A DNA stretch of 43,372 bases, from the sequence record NC_073321.1, one strand, 5' to 3'. The translations under genes and the position numbers were made by a program. This document shows, piece by piece, positions 584 through 40,736 of the stretch; position 1 is the first letter of the stretch; every line of letters begins with the position of its first letter. The notes beneath the pieces were generated by a model. The model had not been told where the DNA came from and did no database searches. It saw only the letters and a program-made list of their open reading frames with translations. The stretch comes from Escherichia phage ZCEC5.

Positions 584-604
584 TCTATTTTCTGCAATGA
601 CTAG

Positions 605-633
605 TTGACTATTATCCTCGACCCTACTATATT
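605..633 (+). promoter_or_regulatory. Sigma70-like promoter TTGACT-17-TATATT for the small-gene array
   Basis: -35 TTGACT at 605-610, 17-bp spacer, -10 TATATT at 628-633; about 33 bp upstream of first small ORF. Confidence 0.45.
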
Positions 634-3535: not shown

Positions 3536-4796
3536 TATCACGGCAACGGAACCGCAAGGCGCGTTTCTCGGTATGCACTGCAAGTTCCCTGCCTTCGTAG
3601 CGGGATTTGGCACTGGCAAATCCGAAGTCATGTGCAACTCTGCACTACTCGATAGCATGGAAGGTGGTAGCGATTCTATCATCGCCATGTATGAGCCAAC
3701 ATACGACCTTGTGCGTCTTATCCTTGCGCCGCGTATGGAAGAAAAACTCACCGACTGGGGTGTGAGGTACAAATACAACAAGTCCGACAACATAATCTAT
3801 ACATCATCCGGACAATTCGGTGATTTTGTTCTGCGTACACTAGATAATCCAGCACGAATCGTTGGTTACGAATCGTTTCGCGCAAAAATCGACGAGTTGG
3901 ACACCCTTAACATGGAACACGCTGAGCACGCGTGGAACAAAGTCATCGCCCGTAACCGCCAGTTACCGCGGACATATAAACCTATTACACCTAAACCGGC
4001 TAATACCGTTTCCGTGTTCACTACGCCGGAGGGATTCCGTTTCGTACATGACCGATGGGTGGTCAAAAAGAACCCTGGTTACGAGATGATTCAGGCATCC
4101 ACCCTGTCTAACCCGTTCCTGCCAGAAGATTATGTGCAGTCATTGCGTGACACCTATCCGGGTCAGTTGATCGACGCCTACATCAACGGCGAATTTGTCA
4201 ACCTAACGGCGGGAACCGTCTACTACGCTTACGACCGCAGGAAAAACAGCAGCCGCGAAACAATCAAGCCCGGCGAGACTCTGTATATCGGGCAGGACTT
4301 TAACGTAGGTCACATGGCGAGCACAGTTTACGTGCAACGGGGTAAAGTCTGGCATGCCGTTGCCGAGTTGGTTGATATGTTCGACACCCCGGATGTAGTG
4401 CGGGCCATAACTGAGCGATGGAAAAGTAAGGGCCACTATATCGTTATGTACCCGGACGCCAGCGGCAAAAACCGTAAAAGCAACAACGCCAGTACCTCTG
4501 ACATCGCCCAATTACAGCAGGCCGGGTTCGAAGTGCGTGCAAAATCGACAAACCCACCGGTTAAAGACCGCGTATCGGCGATGAATAAGGCGCTTGAATC
4601 TGGTATGGTCATGATTAACGAACAGGCTTGCCCGGTTACTGCTCGATGCCTGGAGCAACAGGCCTACGACAAGAACGGCGAACCGGATAAATCAGGTGGT
4701 GTGGACCACCAGAATGATGGAACCACATATCCTATCGCGTATGAAATGCCGATTCGCAAACCAGTAATCAACGTCCCGGTGACTTTCGCACTTTAA
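3525..4796 (+). CDS. Terminase large subunit
   Basis: 423 aa; Walker A-like GFGTGKS near N-terminus; GTG start with RBS AAGGTGG; gene order terS-terL-portal. Confidence 0.85.
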   Translation: MNVNITATEPQGAFLGMHCKFPAFVAGFGTGKSEVMCNSALLDSMEGGSDSIIAMYEPTYDLVRLILAPRMEEKLTDWGVRYKYNKSDNIIYTSSGQFGDFVLRTLDNPARIVGYESFRAKIDELDTLNMEHAEHAWNKVIARNRQLPRTYKPITPKPANTVSVFTTPEGFRFVHDRWVVKKNPGYEMIQASTLSNPFLPEDYVQSLRDTYPGQLIDAYINGEFVNLTAGTVYYAYDRRKNSSRETIKPGETLYIGQDFNVGHMASTVYVQRGKVWHAVAELVDMFDTPDVVRAITERWKSKGHYIVMYPDASGKNRKSNNASTSDIAQLQQAGFEVRAKSTNPPVKDRVSAMNKALESGMVMINEQACPVTARCLEQQAYDKNGEPDKSGGVDHQNDGTTYPIAYEMPIRKPVINVPVTFAL

Positions 4797-8066: not shown

Positions 8067-8093
8067 AAGGCCCCGTTAAGGGGCCTTAGTTTT
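8067..8093. terminator. Bidirectional intrinsic terminator
   Basis: AAGGCCCC-GTTAA-GGGGCCTT flanked by A-run and T-run; sits between convergent genes. Confidence 0.6.
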
Positions 8094-8316
8094 AAACTTC
8101 CACGTCTATTACCAAATCATCTGGTACGGTTATTACTATTTTATCGTTTTCATAGAATGGGTTAAGAGGCTCATTTTCAGGCTGCAGACGTAAAGTTATC
8201 TTTTTACCGCCAAGATAATTTATGTAACGAACCCAGTACCATTGGTCAAATACTTCCACCTTATCACCTGGGCATACGTCCGAGGCCTTCTTCTGATTCA
8301 TATATCTTACTGGCAT
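8092..8316 (-). CDS. Hypothetical protein (74 aa), opposite-strand accessory gene
   Basis: Perfect RBS AGGAGG, own promoter, terminated by the bidirectional hairpin. Confidence 0.55.
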   Translation of the reverse strand: MPVRYMNQKKASDVCPGDKVEVFDQWYWVRYINYLGGKKITLRLQPENEPLNPFYENDKIVITVPDDLVIDVEV

Positions 8317-8342
8317 ACATACCTCCTGTCTAAGTTAACTGA

Positions 8343-8371
8343 ATAGTAGCCTATTATGCTGGGGTGCGCAA
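8343..8371 (-). promoter_or_regulatory. Class B promoter TTGCGC-17-TACTAT containing palindrome AATAGGCTACTATT
   Basis: Near-identical copies at 16926-16954 (-), 39509-39537 (+) and 40677-40705 (+). Confidence 0.5.
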
Positions 8372-8423
8372 ACTGTTTATTTACGTATTCCAGTTATTCC
8401 ACAGAATTGCAAATGTTGGAATA

Positions 8424-8439
8424 AACTATTCGAATAGTT
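8424..8439. promoter_or_regulatory. Perfect 16-bp palindrome AACTATTCGAATAGTT (operator-like)
   Basis: Overlaps -35 of the 8438 promoter; half-sites are the same CTATT/AATAG pentamers as the promoter palindromes, inverted. Confidence 0.45.
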
Positions 8440-8466
8440 GACTTTTCACTGAAAATGTGCTAAGCT
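8438..8466 (+). promoter_or_regulatory. Sigma70-like promoter TTGACT-17-TAAGCT with TG extension
   Basis: -35 TTGACT 8438-8443; TGc immediately upstream of -10 TAAGCT 8461-8466. Confidence 0.45.
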
Positions 8467-8472
8467 CCACCT

Positions 8473-8675
8473 GAGCTTGTGAAGTATGAACAAGCGACCG
8501 CGGCGCGGGCAGGTAACGGAGCGGGACGTAAGTCCTGAGTGTAGTTACGCTGACGCGTTCGGAAGGGCCACACTCTATTTCTTGTGTAAAAAGTAACTGG
8601 TTTACTGAGATTACGCCGTTTCTATGTTTAAATGATAAGGACTAGCGCCCCGCTTTAAGGCGGGGCTTTACTTAT
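8473..8675 (+). ncRNA. Candidate ~200-nt leader transcript / small RNA
   Basis: Noncoding GC-rich stretch between promoter 8438 and terminator 8644; contains only a weak 36-codon ORF (8486-8596). Confidence 0.25.
8644..8675 (+). terminator. Intrinsic terminator directly upstream of spanin genes
   Basis: Stem GCCCCGC / GCGGGGC (7 bp) followed by TTTACTTAT. Confidence 0.5.
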
Positions 8676-8690
8676 CGAGAAAGGAGAAAC

Positions 8691-9077: not shown

Positions 9078-9186
9078 CGATGCCGACGAGGATTTGGCTA
9101 TCGACGTTCAGAACGCCGAATGCGTACGGCAACTGAGACTGAAAGTGTTCATGTTGCAGGATTACGTGAGGAATATTCTGGAATAG
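8923..9186 (+). CDS. o-spanin (Rz1-like outer-membrane lipoprotein)
   Basis: Lipobox LLTLSAC, Pro-rich mature region; GTG start in alternate frame overlapping the i-spanin 3' end. Confidence 0.7.
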   Translation: MKSLSTLKRLVAACALLTLSACSSSPAPSPTPIPSPDTTMMQPPCKLASPSSDADEDLAIDVQNAECVRQLRLKVFMLQDYVRNILE

Positions 9187-9268
9187 TTGCCTTGCATGTT
9201 GGAATAATTTATTCTTGACATGTAAATCCGGGTGGCCCGGATTCCAACGTCCAGGGGACATACTGACT

Positions 9269-12159: not shown

Positions 12160-12774
12160 ATGGCGAAGACTAAAACAGAGATGTTTACCCTTATCGGTGC
12201 GAACCTCCCTGATAACACCACCGGACTTATTACCCCCGCCGCATTGCGCGAGGTAATGACACAGATGGCTGACTCGCCTATCTACGCCACTCCAGGTGTT
12301 AAAGAAGTTGAAGTCCTCCGCGCTGCGTCTACCGTAATACAAGCGCCAACAGCGGTTAACACAGCATTGCAGTTAACTTTCGGCTCTGCTCAGGGTAGCG
12401 CATCCGACCCTGTAATGATTAATGCTGCGGGGCTGGTTACGTTCAACACCGCAGGTAACTACACCGTTCGCATCAAGTTACAAGCGGGTCGCACGGGGGC
12501 GAGTGGTACATCAATCCTTTTATCACGCATTCTCCTTAATGGCGCCCAGTACGGCTCACCCGCCGCTACGAAACTGGTAAGCGCTGACGTAACAATCCCG
12601 ATTGAGTCTCGCGTAGTTATTAACCCAACCGCGGGCCAGACGTTTGCCGTTCAGATTATGCGGGACAGTGCAGGAAGCAACTTCGGCGGCGTATACCCAC
12701 AAGCGGCTACCGTAACCGCATGGGGTACCGCACCATCCGCGCTGCTGGTTATTTCGAGACTGGAGACCGCGTAA
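12160..12774 (+). CDS. Structural protein, unknown function
   Basis: 204 aa in the morphogenesis operon. Confidence 0.45.
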   Translation: MAKTKTEMFTLIGANLPDNTTGLITPAALREVMTQMADSPIYATPGVKEVEVLRAASTVIQAPTAVNTALQLTFGSAQGSASDPVMINAAGLVTFNTAGNYTVRIKLQAGRTGASGTSILLSRILLNGAQYGSPAATKLVSADVTIPIESRVVINPTAGQTFAVQIMRDSAGSNFGGVYPQAATVTAWGTAPSALLVISRLETA

Positions 12775-16910: not shown

Positions 16911-16925
16911 TGTTGGTGTGAGTGA

Positions 16926-16954
16926 ATAGTACCCTATTATATTGGGGTGCGCAA
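16926..16954 (-). promoter_or_regulatory. Class B promoter TTGCGC-17-TACTAT driving the Imm/metallophosphoesterase island
   Basis: Shares 30/33 positions with the promoter at 8339-8371. Confidence 0.5.
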
Positions 16955-28062: not shown

Positions 28063-28950
28063 TTAAGCGGCTACTTGCGGGACGATGGCATTGCCATAAC
28101 CGCGCAATCGTCCCACTCTGGCGGGTATCCCATTAGCCAGCGGGAATGTGCCGGGTTCAACTGGCCGGAATTTTCCATCCCGGCAGCCGAGCCAGTCAGC
28201 ATCTGACCAGAAGCCGTTATGCGTATTGGCTCCACGAGGTAGCATTGATTGTGAAGATTGTTCGGGTCTCTTTTTGTTTCCGCCTCGCTGTAACTTCCGT
28301 GACGCGAATTCTGAACCGTCGGTGTCCCCCATGCCGCTTTCAGCCCCTGTTCCGTTGAGTAGTCCAGTCTGTCGAATGTTCTGTCCTTCCCATCCTTGCG
28401 AATCACTGTCTCCCCGCTCCCTTTGTAATCGTTCGCTGTCGGTGTCGGCCAATTCGTGCGCACCAAAGAAGAGTCGTTCTCTTTTGTGCGGAGCGCCGAC
28501 GCTACAAGCTGGGAGTACGGCAAACCCGACGGCGTAGTCTTCTCCTTCCAGGTGAGCTTGTAAATCGCACATCCACGATTTTGCAATTGCTGGTGCAACC
28601 TGTTCCCCAAAGAGGACTGGAGGGCGGCACTCGCTGATGAGGTCGAGGAAAACTGGCGCAAGGTGTCTCGGGTCGAACTGTCCGAGTTGTTTTCCTGCCG
28701 CGCTAAACGGTTGGCAAGGCGGGCTTCCCGTCCAGAGAGGCGTATCTTCCGAAACTCCCGCAAGTCTGAGCGCGAGAGGCCAGCCGCCGATACCAGCGAA
28801 AAAATGACACTGGGTGAACCCGTCGAGGTCTTCTGGCTTAACTTCGGTAATGCTTCTTTCATCTACAACTCCAAAAGGTATGTGGCCCTGTTTTATTAAT
28901 TCACGCAGCCACGCGGCTGCGCCTTTATCCCATTCGTTGTAATAGTTCAT
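28063..28950 (-). CDS. DNA (cytosine-5)-methyltransferase, orphan
   Basis: Motif I FAGIGG, motif IV SPPCQPFS, ENV-like GEQV, HKRER, C-terminal GNAIVPQVA; no adjacent restriction enzyme. Confidence 0.8.
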   Translation of the reverse strand: MNYYNEWDKGAAAWLRELIKQGHIPFGVVDERSITEVKPEDLDGFTQCHFFAGIGGWPLALRLAGVSEDTPLWTGSPPCQPFSAAGKQLGQFDPRHLAPVFLDLISECRPPVLFGEQVAPAIAKSWMCDLQAHLEGEDYAVGFAVLPACSVGAPHKRERLFFGAHELADTDSERLQRERGDSDSQGWEGQNIRQTGLLNGTGAESGMGDTDGSEFASRKLQRGGNKKRPEQSSQSMLPRGANTHNGFWSDADWLGCRDGKFRPVEPGTFPLANGIPARVGRLRGYGNAIVPQVAA

Positions 28951-29138
28951 TTCGCCACCAGAACTAACTCTTTACGCCCGAACGCCGTAACGTTACCCGT
29001 TACATCTTCGATAACCAGTTTACCGTTCGACTCGACGAACACTGTATCAACGGCAACAGGACGACGGGTCTTAACGTTGAAAATCATATCGCCTGGTACG
29101 ATGTCACGTGCTGGTTTGCGGTCATATTCGTGTTTCAT
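28947..29138 (-). CDS. Hypothetical protein (63 aa)
   Basis: First gene downstream of class A promoter 29171-29199. Confidence 0.5.
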   Translation of the reverse strand: MKHEYDRKPARDIVPGDMIFNVKTRRPVAVDTVFVESNGKLVIEDVTGNVTAFGRKELVLVAK

Positions 29139-29149
29139 TTCTCAATTCC

Positions 29150-29455
29150 TTATATTGTTGGTGTATGACTACTATAATAGTTCGCTATTAGGTCGTCAAC
29201 CTGTTTAAACGAACCAACGACAAAAACATTCGCGCCGCGTTTACGCATACGCTCGTGCTCACGTAACTGGTGCGGGTCTGGCTTCGTGTTTTCGTCTTTC
29301 TTAACCTCGACGAACCAGACGATGCCGCCGGGGAGAATTACCAGCAGGTCAGGAGCGCCCACTCTATTTTCGTACGACAATTTGCGTACAAGGCCCCCCA
29401 TGGCCTCAAATCGCTCTTTTGCGTATTTCTGAACAACTCCTTCTTTAGTTGCCAT
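29150..29455 (-). CDS. VRR-NUC domain nuclease
   Basis: GAPDLLV...VEVKK...Q...G..VFVV signature of the VRR-NUC PD-(D/E)xK fold; ATG 29455 chosen to avoid overlap with HNH gene. Confidence 0.7.
   Translation of the reverse strand: MATKEGVVQKYAKERFEAMGGLVRKLSYENRVGAPDLLVILPGGIVWFVEVKKDENTKPDPHQLREHERMRKRGANVFVVGSFKQVDDLIANYYSSHTPTI
29171..29199 (-). promoter_or_regulatory. Class A promoter TTGACG-17-TATAGT with palindrome AATAGCGAACTATT in spacer
   Basis: Same architecture as promoters at 33083-33111 and 35913-35941. Confidence 0.5.
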
Positions 29456-33082: not shown

Positions 33083-33111
33083 ACTATAATAGCTAACTAT
33101 TCATGTGTCAA
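33083..33111 (-). promoter_or_regulatory. Class A promoter TTGACA-17-TATAGT with palindrome AATAGTTAGCTATT
   Basis: Consensus -35, 17-bp spacer carrying the palindrome. Confidence 0.55.
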
Positions 33112-33300: not shown

Positions 33301-34538
33301 TCTAAATCCTCCTCTGTAACTTGATTCCACTCAGGACGTGTGTCATCCGCCGTTGCGACGCATGGCGCACCGGGCTTACGGGTAATGAAGTCTTTCAGTT
33401 CTTCTTCCGGTACAATTTTAACCGCTTCGGTCGGTGTCATAAGAACTACCTTTTGCAGCATAGTACCGTACTTCTCGAATACTGCGTCGGTATCTTTCCA
33501 CGCACGATTACCGGGGCGACCTTCAACCAGTTTGTATCCTGGCACTTTCTTACCTGAATGCAAAGCAGCAGCCATCGCTTTCTCAACCTTGTCGATGTGC
33601 TGGCGCAACAACGGCAGCTTCTCATACTCAGCGACGAGTTGCTCTGGCGTAAGTTCCAGCGCACAGTCGTCCTCAAGTTCTTCCGCCAGTACCGCGTTAA
33701 CGGTTTTTGTACGAGCTGCGCACTGTTCCGAGAAACGACACCACTGACAACCATCTACCGACGGCTTGAAGTCCGACGCTTTAAGGTTCTTCTTGCCGCG
33801 GTTATAGGCATCAAGTGCTAACAGTGCACGTTTCTGTGCGAACTTAGCGAACAGTTCCAGACCTTCAACCGAGATGTCCCACTCCGACGCGCCACCAGCG
33901 TACGGCTGAAAGATGACCAGACGAACGGTTGTTATGTTATAACGTCTCTTGAGTCGGCGATAAACACCGAGAGCGTAAAGCATAAGCTGCTTGTTTTCTT
34001 TCGCTTCGACACGATGTCGTCCTGTTTTCAGGTCGCCAATAATGAGCATGTACTCGTCGGTGTTAGCCAGTTCCTGAACGGCAACAAGGTCGGCGGTTCC
34101 GAAGGTTTCAACGCCTTCGTAACCTGGGTGCAATACCTCAGTAAGGTTAACGCGCATCTCGAGCTTGGCGTAAGTAGCTACATCGATAATCGGTTTGCAG
34201 TAGTCTGTGTACTTGCGCACCTGCTCAATCATATCCGCCGTAATCAGTACCGCGCCTTTCATCGGGCTGATTAGCGCCTTAATCTGACCTTTACCCTCAT
34301 CCAGCACGTAAGCGCCGACTTCACGCTCTAACGGCAACGCAGTGCCTTTTATATACTGGTTTAGATGGACCTCAGCTATAGTGTGACATGCGGTTCCTGT
34401 AACTGCGGATTTACCAGACGTGTTAGGAATATCTTTTTCACAGGCCAGTGATGCAGCGCATGACAGCCACTTTTTAGCCCCGGACGGCGACAGTAAAGCG
34501 TGTACGTCGTTATTGCCACCGCGTTCTTTTAGAATCAT
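33297..34538 (-). CDS. DUF2800-like PD-(D/E)xK nuclease with C-terminal Cys cluster (Cas4/RecB-like)
   Basis: N-terminal LLSPSGAKKWLSC, catalytic-type GDLKTG, C-terminal CQWCRFSEQC. Confidence 0.7.
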   Translation of the reverse strand: MILKERGGNNDVHALLSPSGAKKWLSCAASLACEKDIPNTSGKSAVTGTACHTIAEVHLNQYIKGTALPLEREVGAYVLDEGKGQIKALISPMKGAVLITADMIEQVRKYTDYCKPIIDVATYAKLEMRVNLTEVLHPGYEGVETFGTADLVAVQELANTDEYMLIIGDLKTGRHRVEAKENKQLMLYALGVYRRLKRRYNITTVRLVIFQPYAGGASEWDISVEGLELFAKFAQKRALLALDAYNRGKKNLKASDFKPSVDGCQWCRFSEQCAARTKTVNAVLAEELEDDCALELTPEQLVAEYEKLPLLRQHIDKVEKAMAAALHSGKKVPGYKLVEGRPGNRAWKDTDAVFEKYGTMLQKVVLMTPTEAVKIVPEEELKDFITRKPGAPCVATADDTRPEWNQVTEEDLE

Positions 34539-35344: not shown

Positions 35345-35881
35345 TTATTCTTCTTCGAAATACTTGTTCTTGATTGCCGTCAGGCGTTCCAGGTATTTGG
35401 CCAGGTCTTCGTCTTTAATCGCGGCAATCTTCATTTTCTTACCGGTGAACTCTTCCAGCAGTTCATCGGAGTCATCGCACGCGGCATCGCTCGGACCTTC
35501 GTTAATCGCATCGTCGATAGCCTGAATCTGATCGCGAAGAGACTTATAATCAACCTCTTCTTTCTCTTCTTCCGGCTCTGGCGTAGGTTCCTCTACTTTA
35601 GCTTTACGCGGCTTGCGTTTCGGCTTCTCTTCTTCTGTCGGTTTAGTGTCAACGACGTCTTCACCTTCGACCGGGATTTCTTTCTCTATCGCCTTTCTCA
35701 CCGCGAGTCCCGCTTGAAATTCGTCCTCCATGATGTCATCAAGTTCTTTTGTTGCTTCTTTTGCAACAGTAGTCTCGATTGTTGCGGTTTCAGAAACGAC
35801 AACCTGTTTTGCACTATTCGCGGCAATCAGTTCATGTGCAACTACGAAACGTTCCAGTAATTTTAAGAATTGGTCTAACAT
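35345..35881 (-). CDS. Highly acidic early protein (178 aa)
   Basis: First gene after class A promoter 35913-35941; very rich in E/D; RBS GAGGAG. Confidence 0.6.
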   Translation of the reverse strand: MLDQFLKLLERFVVAHELIAANSAKQVVVSETATIETTVAKEATKELDDIMEDEFQAGLAVRKAIEKEIPVEGEDVVDTKPTEEEKPKRKPRKAKVEEPTPEPEEEKEEVDYKSLRDQIQAIDDAINEGPSDAACDDSDELLEEFTGKKMKIAAIKDEDLAKYLERLTAIKNKYFEEE

Positions 35882-35912: not shown

Positions 35913-35941
35913 ACTATAATAGCGAACTATTCACGTGTCAA
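35913..35941 (-). promoter_or_regulatory. Class A promoter TTGACA-17-TATAGT with palindrome AATAGCGAACTATT
   Basis: Divergent from the Cro-like gene promoter. Confidence 0.55.
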
Positions 35942-35945
35942 TGGG

Positions 35946-35975
35946 CTTTTCTGAAATAATTAATATGGTACTATT
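35946..35975 (+). promoter_or_regulatory. Candidate promoter/operator for the Cro-like gene
   Basis: -10 TACTAT at 35969-35974 inside imperfect palindrome AATATGGTACTATT; weak -35. Confidence 0.35.
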
Positions 35976-36005
35976 CACATATCAACTGACTAAGGAGTAA
36001 TTGAC

Positions 36006-36221
36006 ATGCAACCATCTGAACTAGGCATCCGTGTAGAACAACGCCGTAAAGAACTCGGCATCTCCCAGCGCCGTCTGGCTGTCCTGACCGGAGTTTCCCA
36101 GGGCGCGATTAACCAGCTTGCGCTCGGAGTAACTCAGGACGTCCGCCCGGCGACGCTGTTTAAACTGGCGGAAGTGCTTGAAGTAGACGCCAAGTGGCTG
36201 GCGTTAGGTGAAGGGGCTTAA
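36006..36221 (+). CDS. HTH XRE-family (Cro/C1-type) transcriptional regulator
   Basis: 71 aa; LGISQRRLAVLTGVSQGAINQL helix-turn-helix; strong RBS AAGGAG. Confidence 0.75.
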   Translation: MQPSELGIRVEQRRKELGISQRRLAVLTGVSQGAINQLALGVTQDVRPATLFKLAEVLEVDAKWLALGEGA

Positions 36222-36237
36222 CGCCCCTTTCTTTTTA
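36211..36237 (+). terminator. Intrinsic terminator of the Cro-like gene
   Basis: AAGGGGC-TTAAC-GCCCCTT followed by TCTTTTT; overlaps the stop codon. Confidence 0.55.
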
Positions 36238-38537: not shown

Positions 38538-38771
38538 TTATTCCAGGTCTTCTAAAGTAGCGGTCATTCCGCGAACTTCAGCAACAGCACTATATTTCCC
38601 GCCAACATTTTTCACGACACCAGATTTAACCAGCACTTTCAACGACCCTTCAATAATGGCTGAACTATAGTACTTAAAATAACTACGGCGCAAGTCGATA
38701 ACGCTGCACGACCCTTTTTTACGTGTTAACGAAACTACCGCCGTAAATACGCGTGACTGGAACTCGGTCAT
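38538..38771 (-). CDS. Hypothetical protein (77 aa) with C-terminal TLEDLE tail
   Basis: ATGA-coupled; C-terminus resembles those of the primase and DUF2800 proteins. Confidence 0.45.
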   Translation of the reverse strand: MTEFQSRVFTAVVSLTRKKGSCSVIDLRRSYFKYYSSAIIEGSLKVLVKSGVVKNVGGKYSAVAEVRGMTATLEDLE

Positions 38772-38938
38772 TTAACGTTCTCCTTAATCCACGCTTCCAC
38801 TTTCTCCGGGTCAAACGTACCAGGCTGCCGGCGGCCCATAATGCGGATACAACAATCTGGGAACTTCCCGCTCTTTAACCAGTTATTCAGTGTGCGACGA
38901 GTAACCCCGATACGCTCGGCTACCTCATTCTGCGTCAT
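38768..38938 (-). CDS. Small HTH DNA-binding protein (AlpA/excisionase-like)
   Basis: MTQNEVAERIGVTRRTLNNWLKSGKFP; ATG 38938 with RBS AAGGAG (ORF-track frame 38768..39016). Confidence 0.5.
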   Translation of the reverse strand: MTQNEVAERIGVTRRTLNNWLKSGKFPDCCIRIMGRRQPGTFDPEKVEAWIKENVK

Positions 38939-39077
38939 CTTTAATCTCCTTAATTGTTTCCCATGCGAACGCTGTAGCTGTGCCGTATTTATTAGGGCAG
39001 TATCTGCTCTCGCCATGTCCGTTAAACCACGCTTCTATCAGCAACTCTTTCAACTGTTCTTCTGTCAAAGTAACCAT
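38925..39077 (-). CDS. Hypothetical small protein (50 aa), first gene of leftward early operon
   Basis: ATG 39077 with RBS GAGGG; the ORF-track TTG start at 39110 overlaps the -10 hexamer. Confidence 0.4.
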   Translation of the reverse strand: MVTLTEEQLKELLIEAWFNGHGESRYCPNKYGTATAFAWETIKEIKDDAE

Positions 39078-39153: not shown

Positions 39154-39182
39154 TTGACATTATGAAAATCTTCGTTTAAGGT
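39154..39182 (+). promoter_or_regulatory. Rightward candidate promoter TTGACA-17-TAAGGT
   Basis: Consensus -35; -10 similar to the 8461 hexamer; divergent from the leftward promoter. Confidence 0.3.
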
Positions 39183-39188
39183 GCTTCT

Positions 39189-39443
39189 ATATCTTAGTTA
39201 CTTTGATTCCTGTTCACCTTGTAAGAATGTTTAACCCGTGCGTCAAGCAAAGGGTTAAACACAGGCTTACTGAACATAAGAATTATAGTAACTTTCCTTC
39301 CTTAGTATCTCCAGTTGCCATGGGCAAGCTCTATTCTCATCGGCAGCATATCTCTTAAGTATCTGATTTTCTTAATGTGCCGTAGATTCGCAACCGTAAA
39401 AATGTAACGATTATTGGGCAGGCTTAAGGCCTGCCCTTTAGTT
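39189..39443 (+). ncRNA. Candidate ~250-nt noncoding RNA in the divergent control region
   Basis: No ORF; contains 9-bp perfect inverted repeat GTTTAACCC-N14-GGGTTAAAC (39229-39260); ends at an intrinsic terminator. Confidence 0.2.
39416..39443 (+). terminator. Intrinsic terminator in noncoding region
   Basis: GGGCAGGC-TTAAG-GCCTGCCC followed by TTTAGTT. Confidence 0.5.
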
Positions 39444-39508: not shown

Positions 39509-39537
39509 TTGCACACCCCAACATAATAGGATACTAT
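39509..39537 (+). promoter_or_regulatory. Class B promoter TTGCAC-17-TACTAT with palindrome AATAGGATACTATT
   Basis: CTTGCACACCCCAACATAATAGGATACTATTCA, near-identical to the 8339 and 16923 promoters. Confidence 0.55.
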
Positions 39538-39571
39538 TCACTTATCGAAACGAGACAGAGGAGTGAGAGTT

Positions 39572-40235: not shown

Positions 40236-40381
40236 GAGAAGAATTCGAACGGTGGGCCGTCGTCGAGGGTCTGCCGGTTAACAAGGGTTCGAAGAAAGAG
40301 TACCTGAACGTTAAGACGCGTCTCGCGTGGCGGGCGTGGAAAGCTGGTGTGCAGTTCCGTGCTGGTGTAACAGGTCAATAG
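40232..40381 (+). CDS. Hypothetical small protein (49 aa)
   Basis: ATGA-coupled; followed by terminator. Confidence 0.4.
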   Translation: MREEFERWAVVEGLPVNKGSKKEYLNVKTRLAWRAWKAGVQFRAGVTGQ

Positions 40382-40404
40382 TTTGGGATTTTACTGAGTG
40401 ACTT

Positions 40405-40440
40405 ACGCTGCTACACAGCAGCGTATCATTTTTCTCATTT
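40405..40440 (+). terminator. Intrinsic terminator
   Basis: ACGCTGCT-ACAC-AGCAGCGT followed by ATCATTTTTCTCATTTTT. Confidence 0.6.
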
Positions 40441-40676: not shown

Positions 40677-40705
40677 TTGCACACTAAGATAGAATAGGCT
40701 ACTAT
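40677..40705 (+). promoter_or_regulatory. Class B promoter TTGCAC-17-TACTAT with palindrome AATAGGCTACTATT
   Basis: Palindrome identical to the reverse complement of the 8342-8355 copy. Confidence 0.55.
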
Positions 40706-40736
40706 TCATTTACACAAACGAGAGGAGAGACAGAAG

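Follow-up and report, generated by a model that had tools for sequence, protein, structure and literature searches.

What does a small relative of the 434 Cro protein do in a phage that has no lysogeny genes, and why does one short palindrome recur at promoters all around the genome of this phage? The question arises from the DNA of Escherichia phage ZCEC5 (NC_073321.1), analysed here as a single stretch of 43,372 nucleotides (the window), in which a first-pass annotation had noticed the 14-bp palindrome AATAG-N4-CTATT (N, any base) next to an isolated gene encoding a helix-turn-helix (HTH) protein of the XRE family. The window, which starts within the endolysin gene, shows about 90% identity to Escherichia phages of the genus Kagunavirus (Guernseyvirinae), e.g., SZH-1, Bas73 and EP-B-K_E2. 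The complete annotated relatives of the window have the usual lytic siphophage gene layout, with no annotated integrase or cI-type repressor and, in Bas73, Shelanagig and SP031, no annotated RNA polymerase. The results described below indicate that the palindrome behaves like an operator, and the XRE gene product appears to be the best candidate for the protein that reads it.

The XRE gene and the two copies of the palindrome adjoining it, designated O1 and O2, are arranged as follows:

35913–35941, minus strand: promoter P_left (TTGACA at 35941–35936, 17-bp spacer, TATAGT at 35918–35913), which scores 11/12 and is the joint best in the 26–43 kb part
35918–35931, either strand: O1, an exact palindrome (AATAGCGAACTATT) filling the P_left spacer
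35962–35975, either strand: O2, a one-mismatch copy (AATATGGTACTATT) overlapping the −10 element of the XRE gene's own promoter
35966–35974, plus strand: TG-G-TACTAT, a putative extended −10 promoter for the XRE gene that lacks a usable −35 element
36006–36221, plus strand: gene for the 71-amino-acid (aa) XRE/434-Cro-like HTH protein, with the ribosome-binding site AAGGAG at 35992–35997
36200–36231, plus strand: intrinsic terminator directly 3′ of the XRE gene

P_left drives a leftward operon starting at 35881. The XRE unit is self-contained, lying between this operon and a convergent helicase-primase gene, and the terminator that follows the gene makes the unit monocistronic. O1 and O2 are 44 bp apart, between the divergent promoters, and the mismatch that turns AATAG into AATAT in O2 provides the TG element with its T. 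The earlier description of the gene as divergent from the promoter at 35941–35913 and placed between two leftward operons is confirmed; that of an only XRE-type HTH gene needs the addition of a second HTH gene of another family, HTH_17, at 38768–39016 on the minus strand.

The motif scan proposed in the first-pass annotation, run against 100 dinucleotide-preserving shuffles, found seven exact copies of AATAG-N4-CTATT (starting at 8342, 16925, 29176, 33088, 35918, 39525 and 40693), compared with a shuffle mean of 0.02 and a maximum of 1. The coordinates given previously for these copies and for the one-mismatch copy at 35962 were all borne out, and only the near-sites at 600 and 8433 had been left out of the list; together with 35962 they bring the number of sites with at most one mismatch to 10, against 1.2 expected. 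An unbiased scan of all palindromes of the 5-Nk-5 type placed AATAG-N4-CTATT at the top with 7 copies, any other palindrome having no more than 2, and it is the sole enriched palindrome in the window.

Every exact copy lies within a sigma70-type core promoter with a 17-bp spacer, in one of two fixed registers (class A and class B), which upholds the earlier claim that each copy sits in the spacer or the −10 element of such a promoter; the copy at 29176 is located not in intergenic DNA but in the 3′ end of an upstream open reading frame (ORF). Class B promoters (29176, 33088 and 35918, all leftward) have the form TTGAC(A/G)-N4-AATAGnnnnCTAT-TATAGT, where the 17-bp spacer is filled by the palindrome, whose last T serves as the first base of the −10 hexamer; they are the three top sigma70 matches in the 26–43 kb part (11, 11 and 10 of 12). 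Class A promoters (8342 and 16925, leftward; 39525 and 40693, rightward) have the form TTGC(A/G)C-N10-AATAGGnTACTATT, again with a 17-bp spacer, and their −10 hexamer TACTAT corresponds to palindrome positions 8–13. At the near-sites 600 and 8433, the palindrome covers the −35 element TTGACT of rightward promoters. Apart from P_left and the XRE promoter, the promoters bearing a site are:

600–633, plus strand: near-site ACTAGTTGACTATT (600–613) over the −35 element of TTGACT-17-TATATT, after the lysis cassette and its terminator
8342–8371, minus strand: class A promoter, palindrome 8342–8355; 74-aa gene at 8092–8316
8433–8466, plus strand: near-site AATAGTTGACTTTT (8433–8446) over the −35 element of TTGACT-17-TAAGCT, upstream of the spanin and head genes
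16925–16954, minus strand: class A promoter, palindrome 16925–16938; superinfection-immunity (Imm) gene and SbcD-like nuclease gene, among the tail genes
29171–29199, minus strand: class B promoter, palindrome 29176–29189; operon for a 63-aa protein, a methyltransferase and an SNF2 helicase
33083–33111, minus strand: class B promoter, palindrome 33088–33101; operon for a single-stranded-DNA-annealing protein and DNA polymerase; the orthologous site is exact in 33/34 anchored loci
39509–39538, plus strand: class A promoter TTGCAC-17-TACTAT, palindrome 39525–39538; small-gene operon; exact in 33 anchored loci
40677–40706, plus strand: class A promoter, palindrome 40693–40706; rightward operon running into the lysis genes

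Nearly all recognisable promoters carry a site, the primase-operon promoter excepted. Counted from the transcription start, class B operators run from about −25 to −12, class A operators from about −19 to −6 and the near-sites from about −40 to −27, i.e., all the sites fall inside the RNA-polymerase footprint, and their occupancy should therefore block initiation. The site at 8433 is the weakest, and its count by itself is not above chance. The site at 600 always consists of one perfect and one ACTAG half, with the sides swapped between two genera: ACTAG-TTGA-CTATT in Kagunavirus and AATAG-TTGA-CTAGT in the related genus Jerseyvirus. The intergenic region 8317–8690 also contains a perfect 16-bp palindrome at 8424–8439 (AACTATTCGAATAGTT), composed of the operator half-sites everted (CTATT-CG-AATAG) and abutting the −35 element TTGACT of the rightward promoter. 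A degenerate copy with two mismatches (AATAGTTTGGGATT) is located at 40377–40390, just upstream of a terminator at 40404–40425; it is exact (caggtcAATAGGTTACTATT) in several other Kagunaviruses, having been gained or lost within the genus.

The same motif has already been published in another sense. In the genome paper on phage fBC-Eco01 (PMC9825357), seven PHIRE hits with the consensus tgAATAGTa-ccTATTat-T were attributed to a phage RNA polymerase, and the paper on phage Golestan lists seven PHIRE promoters; the operator/repressor reading, the promoter registers and the Cornellvirus variant described below were not found in the searchable literature. It can be supposed, in line with the published annotation, that no repressor is involved and that the palindrome is part of a promoter cassette spread by duplication, or of a phage-specific promoter read by a phage polymerase or a modified host polymerase. 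The class B promoters do resemble one another beyond the palindrome, as do those of class A, whose 10-bp spacer (39515–39524, 40683–40692, 8356–8365 and 16939–16948) has the conserved sequence ACCCCAACAT, with AACCAAACAT as its Jerseyvirus form, and is conserved across genera. Besides the lack of an annotated phage RNA polymerase in the three relatives, Pfam scans of part of the window ORFs revealed none, and host-type −35 and −10 hexamers at 17 bp flank or overlap the palindrome and are not replaced by it. The offset of the palindrome from the −35 element is +4 or +10 in the window, +7 in a Jerseyvirus orthologue and overlapping at site 600; in that orthologue, of the 16925 promoter, the palindrome is kept and shifted by 3 bp relative to the −35 element, and the −10 element is composed of TATT+AT. 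The palindrome, found in at least four registers and partly in a spacer not read by sigma70, is therefore no polymerase recognition element in itself, and the explanation without a repressor is considered very unlikely.

A protein-guided scan of IMG/VR for XRE homologues returned 74 loci, of which 34 Kagunavirus and 12 Jerseyvirus loci were compared near the XRE gene; the loci beyond these contain more distant homologues, and a lineage with XRE proteins 77–80% identical to that of the window was compared as further Kagunavirus-type variants. Flank-anchored retrieval of orthologous sites was usable for the sites labelled B, E and F, and fuzzy anchors were misplaced at those labelled A and C, so position-defined counting and upstream alignment were used for the conservation counts in place of flank anchoring. 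Each of the 34 Kagunavirus and 12 Jerseyvirus loci has 2–6 exact copies no farther than 10 kb from the XRE gene, and their offsets are syntenic. Taken together, 38 Kagunavirus and 12 Jerseyvirus loci show unchanged half-sites at corresponding promoters, with drift in the central 4 bp and in the flanks. At O1 (−88/−89 from the XRE start), the palindrome is exact in 34/34 Kagunavirus loci although the flanks come in 27 versions and N4 in six, and although a 1-bp indel separates some palindromes differently from the −35 element; the half-sites of O1 are invariant across 36 unique upstream sequences. O2 carries the same mismatch in 34/34 Kagunavirus loci, and the mismatch is also kept (AATATGCTACTATT) in the 77–80% variants despite a diverged O1–O2 spacer, with the TGn element conserved. 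A comparison of four orthologous promoters of the window and Jerseyvirus Shelanagig showed identity at 39/40 half-site positions, 5/16 N4 positions and 48/80 positions of the 10-nt flanks; the half-sites are in excess with Fisher p ~2e-7, subject to the caveat that these sites had been picked by the motif itself. The conservation of the half-sites amid diverging intervening and flanking bases speaks against a duplicated cassette or a polymerase-read promoter as well, and the conclusion that the half-sites are under selection independently of the promoter hexamers, as in an operator, is well supported by these sequence comparisons.

The XRE gene is present in 50/50 motif-bearing loci examined, and XRE homologues occur in 537 phage records, against 423 with the core helicase-primase at 60% identity or more. 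In Bas73 (L002, PQ850603.1), the gene at 34027–34239 is unannotated and the record lists a 31-aa antisense ORF at 34042–34137 instead. The apparent absence of the gene from Bas73 was dismissed as a counter-example, being an annotation gap, since a tblastn search recovers the gene with 98.6% identity; presence surveys based on annotation would wrongly score the regulator as lacking. The more distant XRE homologues from IMG/VR (31–45% identity) have no exact copies of the motif within 10 kb of the XRE gene and share no upstream motif, which makes them uninformative as a test of the operator. A protein homologue search for the same recognition helix in another genomic context gave 20 clusters, all Kagunavirus-type. 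Pseudomonas phage LDT325 was left unused as a test of host independence, being an ordinary Jerseyvirus with a doubtful host label.

Searches with the 71-aa protein clearly relate it to the regulators of the 434 type. The protein matches Pfam HTH_3 (PF01381) at residues 11–65 with 47.2 bits (cut-off 23, E=2.3e-12), and a phmmer search against the PDB aligned residues 6–68 with residues 4–64 of 434 Cro (1zug; E=7.9e-6), a full-length match of two 71-aa proteins; its best solved-structure matches are 434 Cro and the DNA-binding domain of the 434 repressor. The single-sequence AlphaFold 2 model (predicted local distance difference test score, pLDDT, 85) contains five helices (5–17, 21–28, 32–39, 48–57 and 62–66) and no additional domain. 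A Foldseek search with this model found 2cro (template modelling (TM) scores 0.77/0.83) and 3cro (0.79/0.85), and also P22 c2, SinR, HipB and restriction-modification (R-M) controller proteins (TM 0.75–0.85), and structure-based alignments with 434 Cro gave 36–40% identity. Both its sequence and its predicted fold assign the protein to the 434 Cro-like branch of the XRE family. Its recognition helix, GVSQGAINQLALG, is unchanged in 33/34 Kagunavirus loci (one has G replaced with S) and is kept in the 77–80% variants; Q32, the first Gln of the helix, is invariant in Kagunavirus, Jerseyvirus and Cornellvirus. The operators of 434 are 14 bp long, with conserved outer bases read by the recognition helix, whose Gln reads operator base 1, and an uncontacted centre. 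The enriched 14-bp palindrome has a geometry that fits such a dimer operator, and, at the level of sequence, its copies overlap early promoters and the promoter of the regulator itself. A divergently transcribed cI-type partner sharing the operators was sought and is absent, the neighbour being a 178-aa protein without a Pfam hit that heads the recombination operon; the XRE protein is therefore not part of a cI/Cro switch.

The genomes of the sister clade, the Cornellvirus-type phages (SP031, St162 and TS6), whose XRE proteins are 41–43% identical to the others, offer a natural variant of the system. They contain no copies of AATAG-N4-CTATT. Instead, TATTA-N6-TAATA (i.e., TATTAG-N4-CTAATA) is present in three exact copies per genome (0.04 expected) and, with at most one mismatch, in 7–9 copies (about 1 expected), again in promoters, at core positions comparable to those of AATAG-N4-CTATT, e.g., TTGACA-N5-ATATTACTGTTC-TAATAT; the reciprocal TAATA-N6-TATTA is enriched in Jerseyvirus and Kagunavirus only. 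Both half-sites have thus changed together and the symmetry is preserved, which is a further point against a spread cassette or a polymerase-specific promoter. This symmetric switch bears, too, on the supposition that the palindrome is bound by a transcription factor of the host (E. coli or Salmonella), tying the phage promoters to a host signal. The occurrence of the same core motif in E. coli and Salmonella phages whose XRE proteins share 49% identity would agree with a host factor. Jerseyvirus and Cornellvirus, however, share the host Salmonella, and on this host the Cornellvirus-type phages have the half-sites TATTAG/CTAATA and no AATAG-N4-CTATT; a symmetric change between clades that have different XRE proteins and the same host points to a dimeric binder encoded by the phage and away from a host factor. 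Moreover, a dedicated phage HTH gene adjoins the paired sites, and to our knowledge no enterobacterial regulator has the consensus AATAG-N4-CTATT. A host factor as the binder seems highly improbable.

If the binder is encoded by the phage, proteins other than the XRE protein come into consideration. The DNA-binding domains found among the ORFs scanned are XRE, HTH_17, a NinH-like domain (sub-threshold) and an HNH-AP2 homing endonuclease, the gene for which is lacking in many relatives. The operator could be bound by the HTH_17/excisionase-like protein (38768–39016), the NinH-like protein (2176–2436) or an uncharacterised small protein such as the 63-aa product (28947–29138). The XRE protein is far less conserved than the HTH_17 or the 63-aa protein: HTH_17 is 81% identical between Kagunavirus and Jerseyvirus, which have the motif in common, and the amino-acid sequence of the 63-aa product is the same in Jerseyvirus (100% identity, against 85% at the nucleotide level); both are absent from Cornellvirus, which lacks AATAG-N4-CTATT. 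Nevertheless, none of the three genes adjoins a pair of motif copies, and each protein has its own difficulties. HTH_17 was rejected as the binder, since in two Kagunavirus loci (L012 and L023) it is replaced, together with its 77-aa neighbour, by an unrelated module of 149-aa and 47-aa proteins, with 3 and 6 exact motif copies remaining, respectively, and since Cornellvirus has the analogous palindrome without HTH_17; excisionase-type winged HTH proteins are, besides, not usually dimeric readers of short symmetric 14-bp sites. The 63-aa protein was rejected because its predicted structure is an SH3/Tudor-like barrel without sequence-specific DNA-binding relatives. The NinH-like protein falls short of the Pfam threshold, and its conservation is just as high in Cornellvirus (69%), a clade with a different motif. 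A different phage protein as the reader of the operator is unlikely.

As to these genes themselves, the HTH_17 gene is located at the head of the primase operon; the alternative module occupies the same place at 3600–4210 in L012 and at 12560–13145 in L023, and its 47-aa protein is zinc-ribbon-like (CxxC...CxxC). The 63-aa protein (28947–29138, minus strand) is encoded in 41/41 loci covering the region and is identical to its Shelanagig counterpart.

The XRE gene product is, on the evidence of sequence, the probable best candidate for the binder, being a full-length 434 Cro homologue that is encoded in all motif-bearing genomes examined, adjoins two motif copies and covaries with the motif between clades, and it is rather likely that it binds the palindrome. 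A number of observations count against this assignment or against the role proposed below. Identity between the XRE proteins of Kagunavirus and Jerseyvirus is only 49%, against 64–91% for other shared genes, which puts XRE among the most diverged of these, and the recognition helices of the two proteins differ (QGAINQ and QSLITH, respectively), yet the genera have a common AATAG core; the Jerseyvirus helix resembles that of Cornellvirus (QSAISH), whose motif differs. The grouping of the helices thus does not match the grouping of the motifs, and the covariation at the level of the helix is not clean; within the helix, only the position immediately preceding the invariant Gln tracks the motif, with Ser in the two genera that share AATAG and Thr in Cornellvirus. 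The Cornellvirus promoter beside the XRE gene has a hybrid site only. In Jerseyvirus, the site adjoining the XRE gene invariably contains one mismatch, and no operator is recognisable in the promoter of the gene itself, so autoregulation is not conserved. The conservation of the class A spacer (ACCCCAACAT/AACCAAACAT) has no obvious reason. Sites are also present at promoters leading into lysis and structural genes, and if essentially all promoters are repressed, these included, a simple early-to-late switch is hard to draw. The leftward helicase-primase promoter (39138–39110) has no operator site. In favour of the assignment, an RNA sequencing study of Kagunavirus K1B4 (PMC12645636), the only transcriptome from this genus, placed an HTH-domain gene, a possible orthologue of the XRE gene, among just four 'early' genes; its time course is coarse (5–120 min).

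The circuit suggested by the arrangement of the sites can be outlined as follows. The 71-aa 434-Cro-type protein would bind as a dimer to the 14-bp operator (T/G)AATAG-N4-CTATT(A/C) within the RNA-polymerase footprint of promoters served by the host sigma70, and binding would block initiation. The XRE gene, with its weak −35-less extended −10 promoter, the imperfect operator O2 and its own terminator, would be expressed from the start of infection, and the protein would limit its own level. On accumulating, it may turn down three replication/recombination operons, two rightward small-gene operons and two leftward units embedded among the structural genes; non-structural transcription would thus be turned down in a Cro-like manner, in a phage without lysogeny. 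The first-pass annotation had proposed one dimeric repressor acting on dispersed operators as a temporal switch. This proposal is supported in part: the operator nature of the palindrome is well supported, the XRE protein is its probable binder, binding, dimerisation, repression and timing are what we infer from the sequence, and the temporal switch is unproven. Since nearly every promoter carries a site, the circuit may resemble a global feedback damper, one with graded affinities, more than a sharp switch from early to late expression. A bolder version, in which one autoregulated 71-aa repressor times early, middle and late expression without an activator, a sigma factor or an antiterminator, with thresholds set by graded operators and with the pair re-specified from TAATAG to TATTAG, so that control is clade-specific, is possible and rather doubtful. 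In such a scheme, the promoters with perfect operators, which serve replication, recombination, the small genes and the embedded leftward units, would be shut off, conserved operators combining a perfect and an ACTAG half-site would lie over the −35 elements of promoters into the packaging/head genes, and the mismatched O2, doubling as the TG of the regulator's extended −10 element, would add another threshold.

A comparison with known systems helps to place the proposed circuit. It shares with 434 Cro the length of 71 aa, the five-helix XRE fold, an operator (here a proposed one) in the form of a 14-bp pseudo-palindrome whose outer bases are conserved and whose centre is free, the overlap of operators with early promoters and a weaker site at the regulator's own promoter. 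It differs from 434 in the half-site (AATAG here, ACAA in 434) and in position 2 of the recognition helix (Gly here, Gln in 434), and it lacks a partner cI, a tripartite OR/OL and a lysogeny module; the sites are found at 8–10 promoters around the whole genome, whereas 434 has two operator clusters. The role proposed resembles that of lambda Cro at PL and PR, a small early protein that lowers early transcription from inside the promoters and feeds back on itself, but the lambda protein has an alpha plus beta fold and 17-bp operators, and the targets in this strictly lytic phage would include promoters among the structural genes and into the lysis genes. One repressor acting on many scattered short sites, often at promoters, is also known from the conserved inverted repeats of phiC31 and the 'stoperators' of L5 gp71. 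Those repressors maintain lysogeny, and the L5 sites are asymmetric and in many cases block elongation, in contrast to the present case, where every exact copy lies in a core promoter and there is no prophage state. The controller (C) proteins of R-M systems (C.AhdI, C.BclI and C.Esp1396I), which rank near the top of the structural matches, are likewise XRE proteins, some 70–80 aa in length, that act as dimers on palindromic C-boxes overlapping their own promoter and provide delayed, autoregulated timing; unlike the XRE protein described here, they are confined to a single operator pair, that of their own operon, and serve as activators and repressors alike, and in the window there is no R-M context and no site placed for activation.

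The phages of the genera Kagunavirus and Jerseyvirus are among the siphophages most often isolated for therapy and biocontrol of E. coli and Salmonella, and their transcriptional control is undescribed; the searchable literature on the regulation of Guernseyvirinae yielded genome reports and, as experimental work, the one coarse RNA sequencing study. Should the proposed circuit be correct, some 8–10 promoters and one small gene would explain the restraint of non-structural expression, and the published annotation of phage RNA-polymerase promoters would be corrected. A 'Cro/repressor' gene in such a genome would then be no sign of temperate behaviour, a recurring safety question for therapeutic phages, and engineers would gain a portable, compact repressor/operator pair that occurs naturally in two specificities (TAATAG and TATTAG). 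The general understanding of repressor action would be unchanged, the circuit being an ordinary repressor/operator circuit used genome-wide without lysogeny.

Two further regions of the window contain features apart from the palindrome. The segment 39145–39500 is a non-coding stretch of about 350 bp between the divergent primase and rightward operons, with a promoter-like TTGACA-17-TAAGGT at 39155 and a strong terminator at 39416–39436; the Rfam scan gave no match here or elsewhere in the window, and the segment may represent a small RNA or an origin region. Upstream of the scaffold gene, at 9170–9260, repeated GGAATAG/GGAATAATTTATTC elements adjoin TTGACA and are followed by a perfect hairpin, AATCCGGG-TGG-CCCGGATT. 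This block is kept in Kagunavirus, Jerseyvirus and Cornellvirus and may be a late-gene control element separate from the palindrome.

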